In this document: piece by piece, positions 18,279 to 56,091 of the stretch
Layout: each line of letters opens with the position of its first letter
How positions within the stretch are numbered: position 1 is the first letter of the stretch
From: Patescibacteria group bacterium
Lineage (GTDB): Bacteria > Patescibacteriota > Microgenomatia > UBA10105 > UBA927
NCBI GenBank assembly: GCA_035510735.1
Contig: DATKGN010000004.1
Location: forward strand, 92,705 to 156,704
Reading direction: 5' to 3'
DNA: 64,000 nucleotides
Program-made: the position numbers and the translations under genes
Notes under the pieces: model-generated
Seen by the model: only the letters and a program-made list of their open reading frames with translations
The model's database searches: none
Told to the model about the DNA's origin: nothing

Positions 18279-19244
18279 ATGAAAAATAAATCCATAAAAA
18301 ATGACATCGTTATATATCAGGCTAAATCCGGTGCAATTGAGCTGAAAGGCGATTTTGCAAAAGAAACCATCTGGGCGACGCAGGCTCAGCTTGTTGATAT
18401 TTTTGAAATTGATCAGTCTGTAGCGTCAAGGCATATCAGTAACATATTTAACGATGGCGAGATATCAAAAGAAAGCAATATGCAAAAAATGCATAATGCA
18501 AATTCTGACAAACCAGTAATCTTATATTCACTTGATGTGATATTAGCCGTTGGTTATCGTGCTAATTCAGCACGAGCTATCCGCTTTCGTAAATGGGCGA
18601 CGCAGGTATTGAGAAACCATTTGATTAATGGTTATACGATTAACCGTTCACGCATCGCCAAAAATTACGGTAAATTTCTTAAAGCCGTTGAGCAGATAAA
18701 ACAGTTATTGCCTGAAAGCGGAAATGTGAGCACGGACAGCGCACTGGATCTCGTTTCGCTTTTTGCAAGCACGTGGATATCCCTTGAAGCATATGATACG
18801 TCGGTTTTGCCGGTGGCAGGCGCGACGCAAAAACAGGTTTCACTCACTGCACAGAATCTGGAGTCGGTTTTGAGAGAATTTAAGCATGAGTTGATGAAAC
18901 GGAAACAGGCGAGTGAGTTGTTCGGCCGGGAGCGGCAAGCGGATAGCTTTACGAGCATTGTCGGCAATGTATTTCAGTCATTTGGCGGGCGCGATGTGTA
19001 CCCGAGTGCAGAGGAAAAAGCGGCACATTTGTTGTATTTCGTCGTAAAAGATCATCCGTTTACCGACGGGAACAAACGGAATGGTGCGTTTGTGTTTATC
19101 TGGATTCTTAAGAAAGCGCGCCTCCTGAACGTTGGCCGTCTGACTCCTGAAGCTCTGACAGCGCTTACGTTATTGGTCGCAGAGAGCGATCCGAAAAATA
19201 AAGACAGAGTGATCGGGCTTATTTTGCTGCTTCTGAAAAAATAA
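18279..19244 (+). CDS. RhuM-family N-terminal domain fused to a Fic/Doc domain
   Basis: N-terminus matches the RhuM virulence-family start (IVIYQAKSGAIELKGDFAKETIWATQAQLVDIFE). C-terminal HPFTDGNKRNG Fic/Doc motif. Confidence 0.6.
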   Translation: MKNKSIKNDIVIYQAKSGAIELKGDFAKETIWATQAQLVDIFEIDQSVASRHISNIFNDGEISKESNMQKMHNANSDKPVILYSLDVILAVGYRANSARAIRFRKWATQVLRNHLINGYTINRSRIAKNYGKFLKAVEQIKQLLPESGNVSTDSALDLVSLFASTWISLEAYDTSVLPVAGATQKQVSLTAQNLESVLREFKHELMKRKQASELFGRERQADSFTSIVGNVFQSFGGRDVYPSAEEKAAHLLYFVVKDHPFTDGNKRNGAFVFIWILKKARLLNVGRLTPEALTALTLLVAESDPKNKDRVIGLILLLLKK

Positions 19245-19271
19245 TTAGAGCGCTTCCATTGACGATGGTAA

Positions 19272-19330
19272 ATGTATTTCGAACTAAGCTTGCCTGTCTA
19301 CCTGCGCAGACAGGCGTAGGTAGGGGATTT
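19272..19330. repeat. intergenic hairpin module, copy 2
   Basis: tgtatttcgaactaagcttgcctgtctacctgcgcagacaggcgtaggtagggg. The inverted repeat is identical to copy 1 apart from one loop base. Confidence 0.6.
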
Positions 19331-19426
19331 TGCCTCATTATCTCTAAAACACCGTGAATAGAGCCTATTTTTCACCCAAATTCATGATAAATTGACAAAA
19401 CACCGTGAATATGATAGTATACAGCC

Positions 19427-20317
19427 ATGGCTACTTCACGATTGATCACCGATAGGATACGGATATTAAAAACGCAATATGACCGTATGCGCGCCGGAAA
19501 AGATGCATTACTTGTGCTTATTGATGAAGCGGAGGTAGCGGAAAGCGTCTATAACTCCAACGCAATTGAGAACTCGACGCTCAGTCTCCCTGAAACGGAA
19601 AAAATATTGCTTGAAATGGAAGTTTCCCGGAATATTAGTGTGCGCGAAGTGTACGAAGCAAAAAATTTAGCCCGCGTAAGTGCTTATGTACGGGCATTAT
19701 CGAAAGACCGTGAACTGTCTAAAGAACTTATATGTGCACTTCACGGGATGCTTCTGGTTGGAATAGACGATACCATTGCCGGACGATTCAGGAAGGCAAA
19801 CGAATTTGTTCGCGTAGGCACATTTATCGCGCCAGCGCCTGAACATATAGATTTATTGATGGACCGGATGTTAGAAGAATATACGAGCAATCTGACGACG
19901 TATCCTCTGGATGCGATCGCGAGGTTTCATCTGGAGATTGAAACAATTCATCCGTTTAATGACGGCAACGGTCGTATCGGAAGAGCACTCATTAACCTAC
20001 AACTACAGCGCATCGGATTTCCAAACGTTATTATCCGGGATAAAGAAAAGCAGGAATATTATCGGGGATTTACGACGTACCGTGATGACAAAAAGACGCA
20101 AATCATGGAACGCGTGCTCACAAGAGCGATAATTGAATCACTGCACAAGAGGATTACCTATTTACAGGGAGAAGAAATACTGACGCTCGCGGCCTATGTC
20201 AAAGAGCATGGGTTCGGTGCTCCCACTGTATTTAATAAAGCACGCCGGCAAACAATCCCGGCCTTCCGCGAAAAGGGAGTGTGGAAAATAGGGAAAAATT
20301 ACAATCCTAAATCCTAA
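19427..20317 (+). CDS. Fic family protein (AMPylase/adenylyltransferase-type)
   Basis: Canonical HPFNDGNGRIGR Fic motif. Confidence 0.75.
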   Translation: MATSRLITDRIRILKTQYDRMRAGKDALLVLIDEAEVAESVYNSNAIENSTLSLPETEKILLEMEVSRNISVREVYEAKNLARVSAYVRALSKDRELSKELICALHGMLLVGIDDTIAGRFRKANEFVRVGTFIAPAPEHIDLLMDRMLEEYTSNLTTYPLDAIARFHLEIETIHPFNDGNGRIGRALINLQLQRIGFPNVIIRDKEKQEYYRGFTTYRDDKKTQIMERVLTRAIIESLHKRITYLQGEEILTLAAYVKEHGFGAPTVFNKARRQTIPAFREKGVWKIGKNYNPKS

Positions 20318-20377
20318 ATCTGAAATCTTAAATCCGATATTTATCTTGCCATGAACCATGAACCATGAACGATGAAC
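20303..20377. repeat. two short tandem heptamer arrays (AATCCTA-like x4; CATGAAC x4)
   Basis: aatcctaaatcctaaatctgaaatcttaaatcc straddles the Fic stop. catgaaccatgaaccatgaacgatgaaca lies about 15 nt downstream. Confidence 0.6.
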
Positions 20378-20466
20378 AATTTAATTTTCGAGCATGAGGG
20401 GAATCCTGTGCAGGATATATCCTATAATGTTGTTTTCCTCAGGTTTTTGTGCTATGATCCGGTCTC

Positions 20467-21195
20467 ATGACCATATCGGAAGCAGACAGTTATTTACCGG
20501 AGAGCCGTCAATTACAAGACGTTTTTGAGATTGCTCAAAAGACGCATTTTACTATCGGCACAACGCTTGCGGAGATTCAACGTGCCCCGTTTGAAAAGGT
20601 TTCCCGGGCGACTTCGGATTTCATCACGACATCCGTTGCCTATTTTGCCAACCGCGGTCACTCGGAGCTTGCGCAAACCATCGGAACGTGCGCATGGAGG
20701 ATGATAAACAGGAAAGAAGTATTCCCGATGTATACGGAGAATATTCCCGTTGTCTTACACAACTATTTTGAAATTCCTGTTAACAAAATTCTCACAATGA
20801 CCGCTCCGGGAGAACCGGTATCTTTAATAGGTGTATTTCCGAAGACCGAAATTAATAAAGTTGCAGGCTTTATCATATTTCCGCCCGAGTTTCCGCTCCG
20901 CGTGATGACCAGACCAGTCGAAGCGCTGGCCACTATATCCAGTATGGCGTCGCAAATCACGGATTATTCAAACGGCAGACTGTATATCGACGCTCCGAAT
21001 ATAAAGCTACGAGCACAGGCTTTTGAAGCAGATTTTTTGCTCCACGCCCGTCGGGAAATACCGGATTTGGAATTGTCTCCTGTATTTTCACCGCTTTTAC
21101 AACTTTATCCCAAGGGGATGGAGAGCTTAGTTCCGAAACAACGATACAATCCCAACGATAATCTTCCGCCAATCAGCTTTGTCACTCTTCCATAA
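20467..21195 (+). CDS. hypothetical protein
   Basis: 242-aa ORF with no motif. Coding-like composition. Confidence 0.4.
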   Translation: MTISEADSYLPESRQLQDVFEIAQKTHFTIGTTLAEIQRAPFEKVSRATSDFITTSVAYFANRGHSELAQTIGTCAWRMINRKEVFPMYTENIPVVLHNYFEIPVNKILTMTAPGEPVSLIGVFPKTEINKVAGFIIFPPEFPLRVMTRPVEALATISSMASQITDYSNGRLYIDAPNIKLRAQAFEADFLLHARREIPDLELSPVFSPLLQLYPKGMESLVPKQRYNPNDNLPPISFVTLP

Positions 21196-21237
21196 AAGAA
21201 GATAGGAGTGCGGATTTACCACTTTTGCGCGCGGCGA

Positions 21238-21957
21238 TCACTTCAGCGGTCCGACATCGAGAAGAAGAATTTCGGTGTCACCTGCGGCTTTAAGCGTTAG
21301 CTTCGATTCCTTCGTTATCATCGCCGCCGACAGAACGGGGGCATCTATGCCGTTGACCGCGAGCGGCGCGCCCTCCAATATATATAGATAGTATCCGCGT
21401 TTGGGGTCGAGGGTTTTGGAAACGTGTTTCCCATCAGTCAAAAATAATGAATATACGGCGGCATCGGATTTTATCCTGAGCGCGCCCGCGTCACTATTGG
21501 ATACAAGCGGAAGAAACTTGTCGGTCCGGTCAGTCTTCTCAACTTTTTTCTGCTCGACAGCAGGCTCATGATCGGGCCGGTCCGGCAGAAACCAGAGCTG
21601 AATGAACCGCATGGGCGCGTCCGGTTTATTATTAATTTCCGAGTGCCACATGCCCGTGCCGACCGTCGTGTGCTGGACCCAGCCTTTTTTGAGAATCCCG
21701 CCCAGGCCCCGTTCGTCCTCATGCCGGAATTCGCCCGCCGCCACATACGTGACGACCTCATTGTACCGGTGCGGGTGCAAGGGCCACACGGCGCCGGGAG
21801 ACAGGGTATCGTCGTTACACACCCGAAGACACCCGAACCGTTCAAATTTGGGATCGAAATATTGGTCAAAGGAAAAGTGCCACCGTCCGGCGAACGTGCC
21901 GTTTACTATTTCCCCGTGTGCCTTATATATGCTTTCCGGTTTACGGATGGTAATCAT
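21238..21957 (-). CDS. pirin-like cupin protein
   Basis: N-terminal cupin His pattern (HPHRYNEVVTYV...GE) and overall length typical of the pirin/YhhW family. Confidence 0.7.
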   Translation of the reverse strand: MITIRKPESIYKAHGEIVNGTFAGRWHFSFDQYFDPKFERFGCLRVCNDDTLSPGAVWPLHPHRYNEVVTYVAAGEFRHEDERGLGGILKKGWVQHTTVGTGMWHSEINNKPDAPMRFIQLWFLPDRPDHEPAVEQKKVEKTDRTDKFLPLVSNSDAGALRIKSDAAVYSLFLTDGKHVSKTLDPKRGYYLYILEGAPLAVNGIDAPVLSAAMITKESKLTLKAAGDTEILLLDVGPLK

Positions 21958-22113
21958 ATGAGACTTTAGTTTACCATTTTGTAAGCTATATTACATTTAG
22001 ACAGGGGAAACGTGTGAATCGGGCGTGAGGGGAGTAAAATTAACCCCTTGAGTCTAAGAGTACTGTGAATTACATAACAAAAATTTGAAATACCATACTC
22101 TATAATTTGATGA

Positions 22114-22770
22114 ATGGCGTATATCTTTTTAGATGAGAGTGGAGATTTGGGGTTCAAATCTGACAAAAGGAATTCAACATACTTCATTATTTCTGTTATT
22201 TCCTGTGAAGATAAGAAAAAGTTAGAAAAGGCAGTGAAAAAAGTTCATAGATCCCTTCGGAAAAAAGGTATTCGACTGTCCGCTGGTATACTTCATTGCT
22301 ATAAAGAAAAACCAGCTACGAGAAGAAAAATGTTACGTCTGTTGGCGGAATCAAAGATTTCAATTATGACTATTTGTTTAAACAAAAAGCGTGTCTACAC
22401 AAACTTACAGGAAGAAAAGCACGAACTATATAATTATGTGGTCAATATTCTTCTTGATAGAATAATGACAAAGCAACTTGTTATAAGTTCGGGAAGAATT
22501 TCACTTATTGCGTCTAAACGGGAAACGAATAAGTTCTTGAATGAGAATTTTTCTTCGTATCTTTCGGTTCAGGTTGAACGAAACCATAAAGTAAAGTTAG
22601 AAATACTCGTTCGTACCCCCGCAGCTGAAAAAAGCCTTCAGGCAGCTGATTTTGTCAGCTGGGCGATTTTTAAGAAGTATGAAAAGAACGATGACTCCTA
22701 TTATCGAATAATAAAGGATTTGATTATTGAGGAAAATATGCTTTTTGGCCCAAATACGACAAAACCCTAG
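22114..22770 (+). CDS. DUF3800-family protein (paralog A)
   Basis: N-terminal YIFLDESGD matches the conserved DES motif that defines DUF3800. Confidence 0.55.
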   Translation: MAYIFLDESGDLGFKSDKRNSTYFIISVISCEDKKKLEKAVKKVHRSLRKKGIRLSAGILHCYKEKPATRRKMLRLLAESKISIMTICLNKKRVYTNLQEEKHELYNYVVNILLDRIMTKQLVISSGRISLIASKRETNKFLNENFSSYLSVQVERNHKVKLEILVRTPAAEKSLQAADFVSWAIFKKYEKNDDSYYRIIKDLIIEENMLFGPNTTKP

Positions 22771-22881
22771 ACGCTATTTACGAGGAACCATCCGGAACCC
22801 CACGCCCAGGGAATTACTTGTCACTTACTATTATATCCCAGAAGTCAAAGTTAGCAAAATTAAGAGTTTACACTGGGCCGT

Positions 22882-22945
22882 CGAAGTGAGCGTGAGCCTG
22901 CCCGCCGAAGCCGGTGCTTTGTCTGCGTAGGCAGGGGGAGTATAA
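22882..22945. repeat. intergenic hairpin + promoter-like module, copy 3 (variant stem)
   Basis: gaagtgagcgtgagcctgcccgccgaagccggtgctttgtctgcgtaggcagggggagtataattt. Shares gagcgtgagc, the hairpin and GGGGGAGTATAATTT with copy 4. Confidence 0.55.
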
Positions 22946-22979
22946 TTTGGGAGAATATTAATAGTAATATTTTACTTGT

Positions 22980-23777
22980 ATGGTAGTTACAAAAACGAAG
23001 CTTCCAGTTGTATACATGGATGAAACCGGGAATAAGGAGTCTGATCGATTTTTTGTGGTTGGTTTTCTTAGTGTGAGTGACACAGAACAGCTAAATAGTG
23101 AATTGATGAGAATAAAAGAGCAAATAGAGGCCCTTTCTCGATTTAATAGATTAAAACATGTTCAAATGCTGAAAAGTGAAGGTGATATAGAACAGTTATA
23201 TAATTTTGCCAAATCTGCTGGCACATTTGAGTTGAAGTTTAAACATATCACAGAAGAAAATATTCGGTTTTTTAAAATATTAATAAAAATATTAATTCAT
23301 CGAATTGATTTTCGTTTTGATGCACTCGTTATTGACAGAAAAGATCCAAACTATCGGCATACAGACCTCTCTGACATGTATAAGATAATTACACACTTGT
23401 ACTTTAATCATAGATGTAAAGTAGGTTCTATTTTTGTTCCGGATAGTTTTGATTATCGATGGAATTGGGCATCTATGCTCAATAATCCACAAATAGTCGC
23501 GATTATTCCCAGTTCATCACATGCTTTATTAGCGCTTCAAACAGTTGACATCCTTACGGGGTTAGTGGCCCAAGGGTTAAAAAATAAAGCGGACTATACA
23601 AATAAGGACAAAGTGCGGGCCTCTTTGCTTAAAGTTTTTACTGAAGAAGCAAAGGTATCGATTGAGAAATCAGTTACGGTGAATAAACCAAAATATATAA
23701 GCATTTGGACGATAGACTTTTCAAGAACGAAAAAAGGAGCTCAAAGCATGGACAAAAAATCCAACCTTGGCTCCTAA
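22980..23777 (+). CDS. DUF3800-family protein (paralog B)
   Basis: N-terminal VVYMDETGN (DES-type motif). Similar length and architecture to the upstream paralog. Confidence 0.5.
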   Translation: MVVTKTKLPVVYMDETGNKESDRFFVVGFLSVSDTEQLNSELMRIKEQIEALSRFNRLKHVQMLKSEGDIEQLYNFAKSAGTFELKFKHITEENIRFFKILIKILIHRIDFRFDALVIDRKDPNYRHTDLSDMYKIITHLYFNHRCKVGSIFVPDSFDYRWNWASMLNNPQIVAIIPSSSHALLALQTVDILTGLVAQGLKNKADYTNKDKVRASLLKVFTEEAKVSIEKSVTVNKPKYISIWTIDFSRTKKGAQSMDKKSNLGS

Positions 23778-24089
23778 CAAGCTAATAATAACACGAAGGG
23801 AAGATAATTACAATTTATATATTTCGAGCGAGGGGTCACGTTAGAGCATAGAAGATAGATGTTTCTACCTCGAAGGTGGAAGTAGATAGTAAGGCCAACA
23901 AATTCGATATAAATAAAATAAGCCCCTTATAAGCTAGACGAGTTGCCTCGTGCAAGGCATGAAGCCTACTTTCACGTATAAGGAGCCTAATTACTTAGTT
24001 ACAGTATACCAAGAACTGTTAAGTTAACGCAAATAAGCACAATTTTCGTATTCCGAGTGTGAGGGGAGTATAGTGAGGTCATCTTCATT

Positions 24090-24443
24090 ATGAAATCACA
24101 TCTACAATTTGCCGAAGGGCTGATGCATCTCATGGATAGCAAGTTTAAGCTATTCGGCATCAAATTCGGCATCGACCCGTTTTTGGATTTCATTCCGGGT
24201 CTGGGAAGCCTGATCGGGGCATTCGTATCCTGTTACCTCTTTTGGATAGCCTACAAGTTGCACGTTCCGTCAAAAATTTATTGGCGGATGGGATGGCATA
24301 TATTTCTGGATTTCATACTCGGCGAACTACCGTTTATCGGATTCTTCTTTGACCTCTGGTACAAATCAAATGATATTAACCTCAAACTTCTGTACCCCTT
24401 CGTCGATCCTGAGGTTTTGGAAGGAGTGTTGGTTGAAGGATAG
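24090..24443 (+). CDS. DUF4112-like small membrane protein
   Basis: FGIKFGIDPFLDFIPGLGSLIGAFVS matches the DUF4112 core. Two TM helices. Confidence 0.5.
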   Translation: MKSHLQFAEGLMHLMDSKFKLFGIKFGIDPFLDFIPGLGSLIGAFVSCYLFWIAYKLHVPSKIYWRMGWHIFLDFILGELPFIGFFFDLWYKSNDINLKLLYPFVDPEVLEGVLVEG

Positions 24444-24532
24444 GGAGAGTTTACACTGCCTGCCCGTCTGAAGCCTCATGCGTAGGAGGGAGCTTGCCGA
24501 AGTAGCCTGCACTGAGCGTAGCCGAAGTGAAG

Positions 24533-24598
24533 TGTATTTCGAGCGTGAGCTTGCCTGTCTACCTGTGCAGACAGGCGCAGCCAGGGGGAGTATAATTT
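24533..24598. repeat. intergenic hairpin + promoter-like module, copy 4
   Basis: gtgtatttcgagcgtgagcttgcctgtctacctgtgcagacaggcgcagccagggggagtataatttt. The TATAAT lies about 13 nt before the RadC-like ATG. Confidence 0.6.
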
Positions 24599-24608
24599 TA
24601 ATGTATTT

Positions 24609-25292
24609 ATGCACAAGGATTTATACAAAAACGCCGGTCATAGAAAACGATTAAGAGACAGATTTTTACAATCAGGTTTTGATGGATTCGTAGACTACGA
24701 AATTATTGAACTACTTTTAACTCTTGGCACCCCTAGAAAAGACTGTAAACAGACGGCGAAAAATGCGATTAAAAAGTTTGGAGGGCTATATGGTACACTC
24801 GATGCCTCCCTTGAGGAATTACAAAAAATCAAGGGGATTGGACAATATAACGCATTCGGTTTGAAGTTGTTTCAAGCAATTACTGAGCGTCTTGCAAGAG
24901 AGCAAGTACCAAAAAAAATTACACTAAATTCTTTAAAGTCAGTAGCAAATTATTTACAGATGTCTATTGGTCGAAAAAAGAAAGAGTATTTTGTTATGTT
25001 GTCTATCGATTCACGGAACAATTTAATAAAGGTTAGTAATATTTCAGTTGGTTCGCTTAATGAAAGCGTAGTTCATCCAAGAGAGGTTTTTAAAGAAGCA
25101 ATTCAATCGTCCGCGGCACAGATATTAATCGCACATAATCATCCGTCAGACAATCCTGAAGCATCGCCCGAAGATGTTGCGCTCACACGACGCCTTGTGG
25201 AAGTGGCAAGAATTTTCGATATTCAGTTACTTGATCATATAATCGTAACTAAGAATAATTTTTTTAGTTTAAAAGAACAAAATTTAATTTAA
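24609..25292 (+). CDS. RadC-like JAB/MPN domain protein (UPF0758)
   Basis: HNHPSDNPEASPED JAMM-like motif. Helix-hairpin-helix GIGQYNAFG. Confidence 0.75.
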   Translation: MHKDLYKNAGHRKRLRDRFLQSGFDGFVDYEIIELLLTLGTPRKDCKQTAKNAIKKFGGLYGTLDASLEELQKIKGIGQYNAFGLKLFQAITERLAREQVPKKITLNSLKSVANYLQMSIGRKKKEYFVMLSIDSRNNLIKVSNISVGSLNESVVHPREVFKEAIQSSAAQILIAHNHPSDNPEASPEDVALTRRLVEVARIFDIQLLDHIIVTKNNFFSLKEQNLI

Positions 25293-25296
25293 GTTT

Positions 25297-25650
25297 ATGT
25301 CTGACATAAAAAAACTTACGAGAAAAATTATGAAATTTAGGGATGATCGAGATTGGAAGAAGTTTCATAATCCAAAAGATGTCGCCTTGTCACTAGTATT
25401 AGAGGCGACTGAGGTTTTAGAAAAATTTCAATGGAAAAATCAAAAGGAAACTGAAGAATATATAAGAACAAACAAGGCGGATATCGGCGAAGAACTAGCA
25501 GACGTTTTATATTGGATTTTACTAATGAGTTATGATCTCGATATAAATATTAACCGGGCCCTAGAAAATAAGATTAAGAAAAATGAAAGACATTATCCCG
25601 TAGATAAAGCAAAAGGCAAACATGTTAAATATACGGAGCTTAAAATATGA
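25297..25650 (+). CDS. MazG-like nucleoside-triphosphate pyrophosphohydrolase
   Basis: All-alpha NTP-PPase signature EATEVLEKF...EEYI...GEELADVLYWIL (EExxE...E..D). Confidence 0.65.
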   Translation: MSDIKKLTRKIMKFRDDRDWKKFHNPKDVALSLVLEATEVLEKFQWKNQKETEEYIRTNKADIGEELADVLYWILLMSYDLDININRALENKIKKNERHYPVDKAKGKHVKYTELKI

Positions 25651-27494
25651 TTCTCTACGATGCGGATATTGAACATTTTAGTGAAGATGTAATGCAGAAT
25701 CGCATTGCTGACCGCGCATCCGAAAAATATCAAGAATATTATAAGAGGCAACCAGGAAAGTCTGAATATCGTTCGTGGGCAATTTCATTGGCAATTTTAA
25801 ATAACAGCTTCATGTATGCCGGACTTAAAGACAATCATATAGTTGTCGAATATGAACTGCCATTTGCTTCACAAAGGATTGATGTATTATTGTTCGGACA
25901 TGATAGTGTCGGAAAAGAAAATATAGTAATAATGGAACTTAAACAATGGTCAAACGATAGCGTGAAAGACTCTGCTTCAGAAGGAAACATAATCGTTAAT
26001 TATGGAAGATTTGAAAAGGAACGACCTCATCCAGCTCTACAGGTGCAGGGTTATTATTTTGGCCTAAAGGATTTTGTTAAAATTTTTGATGAAACGAATG
26101 CACCAGAATTGAGCGCATCAGTATATGCACACAACTATTCAAAATACAAAGACGCTGTTTTACTTTCTCCTAAATATTCTGAATTAATCAAAACATTCCC
26201 CATATTTACAAAAGAAGACGCAATCGAACTAGGCAGATATCTTAATGAACGTCTGCACAACGGTAAGGGACAAATGGTTTATGAGCATTTTGCTAGGAGT
26301 CCGATTGGCCCATCAAAAAAACTTCTAGATCACACAAGTGAAATGATTAATAAGCGACAGATATTTAATTTAATAGATGATCAAATTGTTGCTTACAATA
26401 CCATAAAACACAAAGCGAAAGAGTTGGCTACAACAAAAAAGAAATCTGTTGTAATTGTAAAAGGTGGTCCAGGTACTGGGAAGTCTGTTATAGCATTAGA
26501 GGTTATGGGGGAACTATTGCGGCAAGGAAAAACTGTTTTTCATGCTACTGGAGGTTCAGCATTTACGAACACACTAAGGAAGATAGTCGGTATACGGGCG
26601 AAAGGTCTTTTTAAATTCTTCTTTAATTTCACCAAACTTCCTGATAATTCTGTCGACGTATTAATTTGCGATGAAGCTCATCGTATCCGCGAAAATAGTA
26701 ACGACTACGGCGTTCCATTCATGTTCAAATCACGTAATCCACAGATTGATGATTTAATACGTCCTGCAAGGCTATGCATATTCTTTATAGATGAGTTTCA
26801 GGTAGTAAGACCGAAAGAAGTTGGAAGTGTTGCAATGATTAAGGAGGCTGCTAAACGATTTGGGGTTAATGAATCTGAGATTTCTGAATTTGAGTTAAAA
26901 ACACAATTTCGCTGTTCAGGCTCAGATGCGTATTTGCAATGGATAGATAATATTTTGAATATTTGTGATTCTGATATTGCCTACATTGATCCTAAAATGG
27001 AATTCCGTATTTTTGACTCGCCATCAAAAATGTTGGAAGAAATTAGAATTAAAAATCGTGAGAAAAAGAACTCAGCAAGAATTGTTGCTGGATTTTGTTG
27101 GCCTTGGAGCAATCCGAACGCTGATGGTTCTCTTGTAAACGATGTAAAAATTGATAACTTTGAAATGCCTTGGGAGCAAAAAAATCAATTCTGGAAATGG
27201 GCAACTGACGATTCAGGAATGGAACAAGTTGGTACTGTATATACGGCACAGGGATTTGAATTTGACTACATAGGTGTAATCTTTGGAAAAGATTTAATCT
27301 ACGATGGTAATAAATGGGTTGCTATTCCAGAAAATTCTTATGACACTCAAGTTAAAAGAAAAAATTCAAATTTAGTAAATCATTTGAAACACATTTACAG
27401 AGTATTAATGACGAGAGCGCACAGAGGAGTCTTTGTTTATTTTATGGACAAGAGCACTGAGAAATATTTTAAAGAAAATTTGAATAGCAAATAA
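25647..27494 (+). CDS. DUF2075-type P-loop ATPase/helicase-like protein with N-terminal PD-(D/E)XK nuclease domain
   Basis: N-terminal IDVLLF...IMELKQ (D-E-K). Walker A GGPGTGKS. LICDEAHRI (DEAH-like). C-terminal YTAQGFEFDYIGVI. The 4-nt overlap with the MazG-like gene implies co-translation. Confidence 0.7.
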   Translation: MILYDADIEHFSEDVMQNRIADRASEKYQEYYKRQPGKSEYRSWAISLAILNNSFMYAGLKDNHIVVEYELPFASQRIDVLLFGHDSVGKENIVIMELKQWSNDSVKDSASEGNIIVNYGRFEKERPHPALQVQGYYFGLKDFVKIFDETNAPELSASVYAHNYSKYKDAVLLSPKYSELIKTFPIFTKEDAIELGRYLNERLHNGKGQMVYEHFARSPIGPSKKLLDHTSEMINKRQIFNLIDDQIVAYNTIKHKAKELATTKKKSVVIVKGGPGTGKSVIALEVMGELLRQGKTVFHATGGSAFTNTLRKIVGIRAKGLFKFFFNFTKLPDNSVDVLICDEAHRIRENSNDYGVPFMFKSRNPQIDDLIRPARLCIFFIDEFQVVRPKEVGSVAMIKEAAKRFGVNESEISEFELKTQFRCSGSDAYLQWIDNILNICDSDIAYIDPKMEFRIFDSPSKMLEEIRIKNREKKNSARIVAGFCWPWSNPNADGSLVNDVKIDNFEMPWEQKNQFWKWATDDSGMEQVGTVYTAQGFEFDYIGVIFGKDLIYDGNKWVAIPENSYDTQVKRKNSNLVNHLKHIYRVLMTRAHRGVFVYFMDKSTEKYFKENLNSK

Positions 27495-27640
27495 GTCAAA
27501 TGATTTATTAACTCCCCGGCCGTATGCCAGAGGAAATTGAAATTGTTGAGAAAAGCACAAAATAATTATGTATAAATTGTCACCGTCCGACTTCGTCCCA
27601 CATTACATTGGAACGGCGTCCAAGGGAGTAAAATATAAAT

Positions 27641-28312
27641 ATGTTTAAGGTATCTCCCTCGGACTTCGCGTACCTGTATGAAGAATGCAAGCATTGTTAT
27701 TATCTCAAGGTCAGGAGGGGAATTACACGACCGCAGGCGGTGATGCCGGGGATCTTTACCGCGATCAATACGCGGCTGCAAGGCATGCTGGTTGGAAAGG
27801 ACTTGCGGACACTTTCTCCGCTACTCCCCGAGGGGTTAGTTGAGAGTCAGGAGGGGTTTGTGGAGTCGGAGAAAGTTCCGGGGACAGAGGTGTATATCAA
27901 AGGAAAATATGACTTACTCGTTCTCCAGCCCGACGGCACGTACATGCTTGTCGATTTTAAATTAAGTCAGCCGAGCGAGGATAAAATTCCCAAGTATCAG
28001 ACCCAGCTCCAGGCGTATCACTATGCGTTTTTGCACCCGGCCAAAGGTGAAATTAAAAATATTACGAAGATGGGGCTTATCATCATGTATCCCGATAAAG
28101 TGAAATTTGAAGAGGGGACGGCCATCCTTTCTTTCCCGCCGAAGTGGATGGGTATTGATATTAACACGGATAAATTTTTAGACTTTATCAATTCGGTAAG
28201 TACGCTTCTCGAGGGTCCGACCCCGCCTGAAAATCCCAACTGCAAGTGGTGCAAATACAGGCATTTAGGCGAAGCGCTCAATTATCCGTCATCCTCCATC
28301 GATCCGTTTTAA
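27641..28312 (+). CDS. Cas4-like Fe-S PD-(D/E)XK nuclease (standalone)
   Basis: N-terminal CKHC and C-terminal CKWC cysteine pairs bracket a DLLVLQPDGTYMLVDFK nuclease core. Confidence 0.5.
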   Translation: MFKVSPSDFAYLYEECKHCYYLKVRRGITRPQAVMPGIFTAINTRLQGMLVGKDLRTLSPLLPEGLVESQEGFVESEKVPGTEVYIKGKYDLLVLQPDGTYMLVDFKLSQPSEDKIPKYQTQLQAYHYAFLHPAKGEIKNITKMGLIIMYPDKVKFEEGTAILSFPPKWMGIDINTDKFLDFINSVSTLLEGPTPPENPNCKWCKYRHLGEALNYPSSSIDPF

Positions 28313-28475
28313 CCCTTCGCTATTATTGTTATTTATACGTGATAATGATAGAACAGAGCTCATGGCCGGTGATTTTAAAGATCAAGGGGAATTAAAGGAA
28401 GAAATCCGCTCGGTACTCATTCCCGGTAATCTCGTTTGGGGTACGGGACTTTATGAAGGCAAATAGCCTTCTCTT

Positions 28476-29036
28476 GTGCAAAACGGTATTTTACGGGCAA
28501 TGGATGTCGGATTCGGATCCTGGTGGCTCACGCCGGATTGCATCGCGTTTGCCATATTATCTTCCGAGCCGCCCCTGGAAAGTTACAGAAGAGCACACCA
28601 TTCGGGCGCCGGACAATTAGGGATTCCCCCTGATCACAACCGGTGGAATTTTGATGTGGGTATTGTTGTAAAAAAAGATGCGGTGATACGGCGGTATCCG
28701 GATCAACTCCGGGCGGTTGGTGAGTTTTTTCACGATAAACCGAAAATGGCGAAACGGTTATATAGTTTTAATGAGGAAGGGACGGCGGTTTTCGGCATCC
28801 CCATTGCTGTGGACGCGGGAAAAACTATTCCATGGGGCGATGAAGCCCGCTTGTATGAGGAGAAAATAAATAATCAACGGGGGAATGCGCCGCGCATCAC
28901 GCCCGATCTTTGGGCAGGCATTTGCATATATGAAGATTGCTGGCCAACACTCAAAAAATGGCATAAAGAAGCGAAAAGAAGCGTCTCTGTTCCTATTTTC
29001 ACGCCTCAGGGCAAGTTATTAAGCATAGGATTCTAA
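28476..29036 (+). CDS. hypothetical protein
   Basis: 186-aa ORF. No motif. Start uncertain. Confidence 0.3.
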   Translation: MQNGILRAMDVGFGSWWLTPDCIAFAILSSEPPLESYRRAHHSGAGQLGIPPDHNRWNFDVGIVVKKDAVIRRYPDQLRAVGEFFHDKPKMAKRLYSFNEEGTAVFGIPIAVDAGKTIPWGDEARLYEEKINNQRGNAPRITPDLWAGICIYEDCWPTLKKWHKEAKRSVSVPIFTPQGKLLSIGF

Positions 29037-55722: not shown

Positions 55723-55793
55723 ATAGTGATTATATCATTGGTAGCGCACTAAAACGCTTAAGAATCTGGTATAATACGAACGTTCTTTTACAT

Positions 55794-56091
55794 TCCCCTG
55801 TAGCTCAACGGTAGAGCGGCTTCCTGTCACAAGGCAGCGCCAAATAGCAATATTTGGATGAACATCGGGCTAATTCGGGGGACTCCTGCACCGCGTTGGT
55901 TTAGGACAATCCCGAGCTAAATTTCTTTTGCAACGCAAATGGACTCGTCCTGAGCGAGGTCGAAGGATAAATGTGTAGAGACTATATACCCGACTCCCGA
56001 TTTTATCGGGATGATGAGATAGTCCAGTCTTTTTGGTAACAGAAAGCAAACTGTAAGAAGAAGGTTGCAGGTTCGAATCCTGCCGGGGGAG
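55794..56091 (+). tRNA. tRNA-Asn(GUU) interrupted by a group I intron (exons 55794-55827 and 56054-56091)
   Basis: The joined exons give a canonical 72-nt cloverleaf. Acceptor UCCCCUG/CGGGGGA, D-stem GCUC/GAGC, anticodon stem GCUUC/GAAGA, loop CUGUUAA, T-arm GCAGG-UUCGAAU-CCUGC, discriminator G. Very similar to E. coli tRNA-Asn. Confidence 0.7.
55828..56053 (+). ncRNA. group I (self-splicing-type) intron in the tRNA-Asn anticodon loop, ORF-less, about 226 nt
   Basis: 5' exon ends in U and intron ends in G. P1 hairpin cugu/gcag with a U.G at the splice site. P-like aauucggggga. P7 candidate ggacu (55941-45) with aguCC in the S-like element gagauaguCC (56016-25). 55842-55855 aaatagcaatattt resembles the start of the Tetrahymena LSU intron. 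Confidence 0.6.

Follow-up and report, generated by a model that had tools for sequence, protein, structure and literature searches.

Two DUF3800 genes that lie side by side in a 64,000-nucleotide stretch of DNA from a Patescibacteria group bacterium (the whole of which is called the window here) are each accompanied by a conserved, structured small RNA, which is encoded on the opposite strand and converges on the 3' end of the gene. The two open reading frames (ORFs), ORF1 and ORF2, represent separate subfamilies of the DUF3800 family (family 1 and family 2), and their RNAs, sRNA-1 and sRNA-2, represent two classes. An initial annotation of the locus, made from the sequence alone, had described the genes as tandem paralogs; the small RNA genes at both 3' ends were missed. 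It is highly probable that each module consists of a DUF3800 nuclease gene and a cognate structured small RNA on the opposite strand. The association of DUF3800 genes with RNA is known and functionally unexplained; the two modules are further variants of it, and they are probably nuclease-RNA addiction or defence units.

Two structured RNAs convergent with the DUF3800 genes

The partner of the family-1 genes, sRNA-1, was found by nhmmer once per family-1 locus (89 hits in total), and the sole family-1 locus that lacks it (L091) is one where the contig stops at the gene. The alignment of 78 distinct copies (A4) yields a 22-pair structure of three stacked helices with the conserved internal loops GUAA and UAAAUAG. 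In this structure 98.4% of the alignment cells are paired, compared to 85.0% in shuffled alignments and no more than 53% after sliding of the partner. Compensatory change occurs at 13 pairs, in 268 cells where 79 are expected, and none of 500 shuffles reached any of the observed measures. The covariance model of this class (R1) scores 89.5 bits at 22743-22828 on the minus strand of the window. The U-rich 3' end of sRNA-1 overlaps the stop codon and the last codons of ORF1, and the remainder is antisense to the 3' untranslated region (UTR) of ORF1, so that the RNA is conserved mostly outside coding sequence.

The partner of the family-2 genes, sRNA-2, is present in all 17 non-redundant family-2 loci, and consists of a nearly invariant apical part (GUUGGrUUUyUUGUCCAUG) flanked by a covarying stem, which varies in sequence while preserving its pairing, and a U-tract. 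The alignment of these 17 sequences (A5) contains 15 pairs, with 97.2% of the cells paired; column shuffles give 84.7%, and sliding of the partner gives no more than 57%. Eight pairs show compensatory changes, and the covariation score (0.525, versus 0.249) was reached by none of 500 shuffles. The corresponding covariance model (R2) scores 78.6 bits at 23715-23787 of the minus strand, and the RNA falls within codons 251-265 of ORF2, on the opposite strand.

Some family-2 proteins end in …KKGAQSMDKKPNLGS, others in …GHGQETQPRL, and the rest have no such tail; all of these are the same DNA, CATGGACAAGAAACCCAAC, read in two frames or placed after the stop codon. The constraint is therefore on the nucleic acid and not on the protein. 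A conserved C-terminal peptide is ruled out by this reading in two frames or after the stop, together with the low predicted local distance difference test (pLDDT) values of the tail: residues 252-265 of ORF2, which are antisense to sRNA-2, are predicted to be disordered (pLDDT <50). These data show that the family-2 protein tail is a translation of the antisense strand of the RNA gene.

Both RNAs lie on the minus strand, as judged from their G-U pairs, folding energies, promoters and U-tracts. For sRNA-1, 98.4% of the cells pair on the minus strand (280 as G-U) and 82.3% on the plus strand; the values for sRNA-2 are 97.2% (66 as G-U) and 73.2%. The window copy of sRNA-1 has a minimum free energy of -26.8 kcal/mol (z = -2.86) as the minus strand and -10.7 kcal/mol (z = -0.26) as the plus strand, and that of sRNA-2 has -22.2 (z = -5.56) versus -15.1 kcal/mol. 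The G-U strand test and the folding energies rule out a plus-strand 3'-UTR element or a DNA hairpin.

A minus-strand promoter-like site with -35 and -10 elements is found at the right position in 56 of 75 non-redundant family-1 loci, compared to 3.7 in shuffles (maximum 9), and in 8 of 16 family-2 loci, where 1.2 are expected. The -10 box alone is present in 68 of the 75 family-1 loci and in all 16 family-2 loci (7.3 expected for family 2). In the window, these promoters end about 7-9 nt before their RNAs, and the -10 element of sRNA-1 about 7 nt before it. At the other end, the closing helix leads into a U-run in 70 of the 75 family-1 loci, and the hairpin in the family-2 alignment does so as well.

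Each of the two covariance models has a single match next to every cognate gene, and no other match occurs in the 315-464 kb that were searched on both strands, the rest of the window included. The pairing of protein subfamily with RNA class is thus strictly one to one.

That DUF3800 genes travel with many unrelated structured RNAs has been recognized since 2017. Eleven motifs (DUF3800-I to -XI) were described, in which UAA is common and for which no functional hypothesis was offered; several of them have a Rho-independent terminator at the RNA 3' end (PMC5737381). Both window RNAs resemble these motifs in being small, conserved, structured and linked to a DUF3800 gene, and both end in a terminator-like stem plus U-run. 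What is new here is two RNA classes that Rfam does not detect. Searches of Rfam 15 with 86-121 nt of sequence gave no meaningful match to sRNA-1 or sRNA-2, and no DUF3800 model at E <= 10. The same searches did work on positive controls, finding DUF3800-IX RNAs (RF02968) beside other DUF3800 genes of loci L021 and L026, and, on viral contigs, DUF3800-X (RF02984), -V (RF02964) and -VII (RF02967) RNAs next to remote homologues of ORF1 (21-28% identity). Known Rfam families were accordingly rejected for both RNAs. Of the eleven motifs, this comparison covered I, V, VII, IX and X by name.

Every control RNA is encoded directly past the 3' end of its gene, on the other strand. One anatomy is common to six RNA classes: from a promoter of its own, the RNA converges on the gene and terminates at its 3' end or within it.

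Among the known motifs, sRNA-1 shares with DUF3800-V a 5' GCAAGUAA.UCC segment and a long closing helix, and a DUF3800-V RNA scores 21.6 bits with model R1; sRNA-1 is shorter, however, and looks like a shortened, diverged relative of that class. It also has in common with DUF3800-IX a CCG(G/U)AUGG hairpin tip and a UAG junction, but is without the second internal hairpin of DUF3800-IX, and the DUF3800-IX RNAs are not detected by R1 or R2. In contrast, sRNA-2 is a single 15-bp hairpin inside a coding sequence and has no evident counterpart among the motifs. The window modules are thus laid out like other DUF3800-RNA associations, but with RNA classes that are unrecognised by Rfam. The sRNA-1 class is very common in Microgenomates, with more than 1868 protein homologues and the RNA in every locus with enough flank, while the sRNA-2 class is confined to a small subfamily centred on Saccharibacteria.

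The DUF3800 proteins and the independence of their genes

The assignment of both proteins to DUF3800 (Pfam PF12686; profile length 149, gathering cut-off 21 bits) had been suggested in the initial annotation, and holds with 50.1 bits for ORF1 and 37.3 bits for ORF2; both matches extend from profile position 1-2 to 148 of 149. The DES-type openings noticed there are likewise present (MAYIFLDESGD in ORF1, ...VVYMDETGN in ORF2). DUF3800 proteins have been defined by an N-terminal DE(S/T)G and a C-terminal QxxD motif (PMC7736814). In the family-1 alignment (A3), D7, E8, S9, G10 and Q176..D179 of ORF1 are invariant, and the same is true of D14, E15, G17 and Q187..D190 of ORF2 in the family-2 alignment (A2).

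Structure prediction, which the initial annotation had proposed as a check for an RNase H-like fold, gave such a fold with confidence for both proteins (AlphaFold 2 pLDDT 90.2 for ORF1 and 86.5 for ORF2), closest to RNase H2. The nearest folds are those of RNase HII and RNase HIII, not those of transposases. The likeness is one of predicted fold: sequence identity to RNase HII/H2A and RNase HIII is only 10-15%, and a profile search finds no relative of solved structure for the window proteins. RNase HII and RNase HIII are also housekeeping repair enzymes, whereas the window proteins form a separate Pfam family with a QxxD motif, occur in accessory islands and have a dedicated RNA. With its DE...QxxD motif set intact, each protein is predicted to be an RNase HII-like, metal-dependent nuclease.

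These features bear on two alternative explanations. One might suppose that the DUF3800 protein is a transposase of the DDE/RNase H type or a homing nuclease, and that the hairpin is the end of a DNA element or a recombination site. However, the predicted folds are not closest to transposases, the strand-specific G-U pairs point to RNA and not to DNA, and the RNAs come with conserved promoters and U-tracts. The conserved element also occurs at one end only, the upstream flanks being unconserved. A mobile element is therefore very improbable, marginally more so than the second alternative, an RNA-guided or RNA-scaffolded nuclease, to which we also give little chance. HEARO and IS605-orfB RNAs did turn out to be guide RNAs, and by analogy with PIWI or RuvC a small RNA could direct an RNase H-like enzyme to a complementary nucleic acid. 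Yet neither RNA contains a variable, guide-like segment, almost every position being conserved or covarying, and the proteins are small (218 and 265 amino acids) and without additional nucleic-acid-binding domains.

Public gene calls vary in the start of ORF2, which is placed at 22980 (M1, 265 amino acids) or at 23016 (M13, 253 amino acids). The longer form is favoured, as it includes the conserved LPVVYMDE strand before the catalytic D-E (residues 10-16 form a strand in the AlphaFold 2 model). A match of ORF1 to Pfam Mt_ATP-synt_B (22.3 bits, cut-off 21.7) was treated as spurious and ascribed to a lysine- and glutamate-rich helix. PADLOC reports a partial match of ORF2 residues 70-127 to positions 42-98 of the 232 in the candidate defence model PDC-M04A (E = 2.7e-9), and ORF1 matches PHROG 9243 (phrog_9243, function unknown; E = 2.3e-16). 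Neither protein receives a functional name from PADLOC, NCBIfam or PHROGs.

The initial annotation had viewed the genes as the outcome of an old tandem duplication, perhaps forming a two-component toxin/sensor pair, and had set conservation of the pair in other genomes as a test. None of this is borne out. BLASTP aligns ORF1 with ORF2 at 18% identity across 44 N-terminal residues (E = 0.004), and far closer relatives exist elsewhere, so local duplication is ruled out. Family 1 is a large, tight subfamily of more than 1868 homologues, typically 211-218 amino acids long and about 60% identical, in which the closest foreign relative of ORF1 is 73% identical; named homologues come from Gottesman-, Woese-, Curtiss-, Roizman- and other Microgenomates/Patescibacteria. 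Family 2 is small (42 proteins, up to 87% identical) and is found in Saccharibacteria, Amesbacteria and a few others.

Co-conservation was assessed in 85 foreign family-1 loci, 40 of them with at least 1.1 kb of flank downstream and 43 with as much upstream, and in 18 foreign family-2 loci, 17 of them with at least 1.1 kb on each side. Within these flanks, a family-2 gene is beside a family-1 gene in 0 of the 40 loci downstream and 0 of the 43 upstream, and a family-1 gene is beside a family-2 gene in 0 of the 17. Contigs L001-L004, which come from the same organism and are 100% identical to the window, are the only ones that carry the exact ORF1-ORF2 pair. A cooperating pair would fit the adjacency of the genes on the same strand, with 209 nt between them, and the tendency of DUF3800 genes to cluster (two in L021, three in L026). 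Against this stand the absence of the partner from every informative locus, the low identity, and the presence of a separate promoter-like site and a separate RNA for each gene. What is conserved beside each gene is a small RNA and not the other protein, and we consider a two-component pair to have almost no likelihood.

Family-2 genes are solitary. Some lie within type I restriction-modification operons, arranged as hsdM-DUF3800-hsdS, hsdS-DUF3800 or hsdM-DUF3800-x-Abi_alpha; others adjoin a serine recombinase or sit between housekeeping genes (tRNA synthetase/TatD, transketolase/aldolase, DNA pol III delta'/RRF). Family-1 genes are found in one-directional accessory islands with MazG-like, restriction-modification, toxin-antitoxin, DUF4112 and PD-(D/E)xK genes. 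DUF3800 genes of different subfamilies gather in such islands (two in L021, three in L026) in no fixed pairs. ORF1 and ORF2 are two independent modules that happen to adjoin in an accessory island, and the module is autonomous enough to occur alone in unrelated genomic contexts.

Several individual loci illustrate these arrangements. A family-2 gene and its RNA are embedded in type I restriction-modification operons at L015 4348-11705, L017 967-4354 and L108 3190-6317, in the last case together with an Abi_alpha gene. This embedding recalls the PrrC anticodon nuclease, which is encoded within a type I restriction-modification operon. Two or three DUF3800 genes of different subfamilies lie within 2.5-4.3 kb at L026 1399-5710 and L021 4200-6709. 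Those genes that were checked differ in RNA class, one being accompanied by DUF3800-IX and another by an RNA of the sRNA-1 class. The stacking of orthogonal modules is thus not peculiar to the window. A phage origin was rejected on grounds of scarcity, because 2.9 million viral contigs contain one close family-1 locus and no family-2 locus. The lone viral match to the sRNA-2 loop pattern (L104) is a chance match, with neither stem nor DUF3800 gene.

Possible roles of the DUF3800-RNA modules

Two self-contained DUF3800-RNA modules with toxin-antitoxin-like logic are the best explanation of the locus as a whole, and we put the chances of this explanation at about even. In such a module, a separate promoter on the opposite strand would drive transcription of the RNA towards the gene, and the RNA would terminate in a stem and U-tract located at the 3' end of the coding sequence or within it. 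Each protein may recognise its own RNA through the invariant unpaired nucleotides, and protein and RNA could together form an addiction or abortive-infection unit of the toxin-antitoxin kind. The RNA would hold the nuclease inactive, and loss of the RNA, either during infection or after loss of the locus, would free it. Control of this sort would resemble that of type III toxin-antitoxin systems and of retron effectors. The addiction or defence mechanism itself is offered tentatively, as somewhat less probable than the overall explanation.

Recognition of the RNA by the protein is suggested by the invariant unpaired nucleotides and covarying helices, which mere antisense pairing would not need, and by the conservation of sRNA-1 mostly outside coding sequence. 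The toxin-antitoxin-like role is suggested by the occurrence of the genes in defence islands and inside restriction-modification operons, and by the defence contexts in which DUF3800 recurs. DUF3800 proteins are effector-type partners in type VII retrons (PMC7736814) and accessory nucleases of Cas12a2, Cas12a3 and Cas13 loci (PMC10910872, PMC13594972, PMC12669027). In addition, a strain-specific DUF3800 gene of Legionella pneumophila scored as essential in transposon sequencing, alongside antitoxins (bioRxiv 10.1101/2020.10.01.323287).

Type III toxin-antitoxin systems (ToxIN-like) provide the working analogy. They likewise combine a nuclease with a dedicated, adjacent, structured non-coding RNA in mobile or defence contexts. 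However, the window RNAs are single-copy, convergent and 3'-overlapping, and the proteins have a predicted RNase H fold and not the ToxN/Kid fold. The tandem RNA repeats upstream that are a hallmark of type III systems are absent: the only repeat in 21900-24200 is a 12-nt AT-rich unit present in 1.9 copies inside ORF2. Type VII retrons are alike in that a DUF3800 protein with DE...(Q)xxD motifs and a structured non-coding nucleic acid are found in a defence-type locus. In the DUF3800 subfamily of these retrons the Q of QxxD is missing, while it is present in both window proteins. There is also no RVT domain among the window neighbours (18279-29036), and no reverse transcriptase adjoins these genes in the homologous loci, the exception being an unrelated RVT_1 gene 3.8 kb away in L021.

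Some observations weigh against the toxin-antitoxin-like explanation. PADLOC has no model for ORF1, and its match to ORF2 is partial. A promoter scan of the whole region is not enriched over shuffles (8 sites found, 7.6 expected), and it is therefore the conservation across loci that carries the promoter argument. The Legionella essentiality suits a protective protein better than a toxic one. Finally, each RNA is complementary over its full length to the 3' end or 3' UTR of its DUF3800 mRNA, which is compatible with simple antisense control. The last two points each lead to an alternative that deserves consideration.

With the polarity reversed, the structured RNA would be the harmful component, and the RNase H-like protein, which would bind or cleave this RNA, would be protective for the cell. 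The logic would be similar to that of type V systems, with an RNA as the toxin. The essential Legionella gene, which was discussed with antitoxins (bioRxiv 10.1101/2020.10.01.323287), would fit this arrangement. As compact hairpins capped by a terminator, the RNAs could be stable, and their invariant unpaired nucleotides could engage a cellular target. The Legionella result is, however, a single indirect data point from another DUF3800 subfamily, work on retrons and CRISPR loci has taken DUF3800 to be an effector nuclease (PMC7736814, PMC12669027), and no cellular target of the RNA loops was identified in this analysis. We consider reversed polarity unlikely.

Purely cis-acting antisense control, in which the RNA would pair with the 3' end or 3' UTR of the DUF3800 mRNA and set its stability without binding protein, seems improbable to the same degree. 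The convergent, overlapping layout speaks for it, with sRNA-2 in the last 15 codons of ORF2 and sRNA-1 complementary to the ORF1 3' UTR. The same layout is found in type I toxin-antitoxin systems of the 3'-overlapping class, whose antisense RNA converges on the toxin mRNA and overlaps its 3' end; txpA/RatA and bsrG/SR4 are convergent type I systems. However, type I toxins are typically small hydrophobic or membrane peptides, and ORF1 and ORF2 are soluble-looking proteins with a predicted RNase H fold. Antisense pairing also needs no conserved structure, and yet both RNAs keep compensated helices and invariant unpaired nucleotides, even outside coding sequence. In addition, DUF3800-I RNAs (RF02969) are reported upstream as well as downstream of the gene, with both orientations represented (PMC5737381).

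Under the toxin-antitoxin-like explanation, stand-alone DUF3800 genes with convergent RNAs might form a widespread, unrecognised class of protein-RNA toxin-antitoxin or abortive-infection systems, in which protein and RNA control each other through subfamily-specific recognition; this proposal is again more doubtful than not. If it is true, it would explain the function of the eleven-plus DUF3800 RNA motifs, which has been open since 2017, and the side-by-side orthogonal modules would be a natural specificity pair. Two orthogonal protein-RNA pairs within 1.8 kb are in any case a compact system for asking whether the RNA inhibits its nuclease, activates it or is processed by it.

The accessory island and its transcription units

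ORF1 and ORF2 are on the same strand, at exactly the coordinates of the initial annotation (Table 1). The AT-rich island and the defence-like accessory setting described there also stand. GC content is 0.35-0.375 at 22-24 kb and 0.35-0.41 across 22-28 kb, versus 0.45-0.51 in the flanks, and the neighbours encode Fic/DOC, RadC, MazG-like, Schlafen-like helicase and PD-(D/E)xK/Cas4-like proteins.

Table 1. Positions of the two DUF3800 modules and their promoter-like elements in the window
Feature	Position	Strand	Description
GGGAGTAAAAT motif	22030-22040	+	84 nt upstream of ORF1
Second TATAAT before ORF1	22101-22106	+	ends 7 nt ahead of the ATG
ORF1	22114-22770	+	family-1 DUF3800 protein, 218 amino acids, D7-E8-S-G-D and Q176xxD179
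sRNA-1	about 22750-22823	-	small structured RNA accompanying family-1 genes, convergent to ORF1; transcript runs from about 22823 to about 22750
Promoter-like site of sRNA-1	22830-22857	-	TTGCTA-16-TATAAT (promoter scan)
Promoter-like site before ORF2	22919-22946	+	TTGTCT-16-TATAAT, includes the GGGAGTATAAT motif (consensus scan)
ORF2	22980-23777	+	family-2 DUF3800 protein, 265 amino acids, D14-E15-T-G and Q187xxD190
sRNA-2	about 23731-23778	-	hairpin RNA accompanying family-2 genes, within the final 15 codons of ORF2; transcript runs from about 23778 to about 23731
Promoter-like site of sRNA-2	23785-23813	-	TTGTAA-17-TATTAT, TG upstream (promoter scan)

Each DUF3800 gene had been credited with a GGGAGTA(T/A)AAT promoter-like motif of its own. 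The motif is indeed present upstream of both, as GGGAGTAAAAT before ORF1 and GGGAGTATAAT (22936-22946) before ORF2, but it is not their own. The window contains four exact copies, all on the plus strand, where 0.05 are expected; the other two are at 24586, before the operon of RadC, MazG-like and Schlafen-like helicase genes, and at 27624, before the PD-(D/E)xK gene. A copy with one mismatch (24064) precedes the DUF4112 gene. The regions upstream of 78 family-1 and 16 family-2 homologues share nothing. A DUF3800-specific promoter motif is ruled out by these results; because it also fronts the RadC operon and the PD-(D/E)xK and DUF4112 genes, GGGAGTA(T/A)AAT is a feature of the transcription units of the AT-rich island and not of DUF3800 genes.

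The TTGTCT-16-TATAAT site is a possible promoter of ORF2. For ORF1, the scan calls no -35 partner, and the second TATAAT is the sole well-placed -10 element. The copies at 24064, 24586 and 27624 sit 17-26 nt ahead of start codons, a spacing that implies very short leaders or leaderless mRNAs; the TATAAT before ORF1 is placed similarly.

The genes of the island all run in one direction, with repeats between them, a layout that might suggest an integron-like cassette array. Two successive Fic/DOC-domain genes (18279-20317, plus strand) lie directly upstream, the first of them fused to a RhuM-family N-terminal domain. Downstream of the DUF3800 genes is a three-gene operon (24609-27494, plus strand) encoding a RadC-like JAB protein, a MazG-like protein and a 615-amino-acid helicase of Schlafen group 3 type, which matches the PADLOC models PDC-S41, AbiO and Nhi. 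A Cas4-like PD-(D/E)xK gene (27641-28312) comes after this operon, and the two together are likely to be a defence cluster. MazG-like, DUF4112 and PD-(D/E)xK genes recur close to the family-1 DUF3800 genes of other genomes.

A GC-rich family of intergenic repeats containing the hairpin GCCTGTCTACCTGyGCAGACAGGC is found at 19277-19326, 22866-22935 and 24448-24587 (plus strand), two of the copies being 90% identical. Repeat-related TCGAGCGTGAGC and GAGTTTACACTG pieces sit just upstream of the GGGAGTATAAT promoter-like motif in several units. Far outside the island, a group I intron interrupts a tRNA gene at 55790-56090 (plus strand); ARAGORN reports no tRNA genes in the whole window. Rfam RF00028 matches 55813-56046 at 74 bits, and the sequences that flank the intron show the acceptor, D-arm and T-arm halves of the tRNA.

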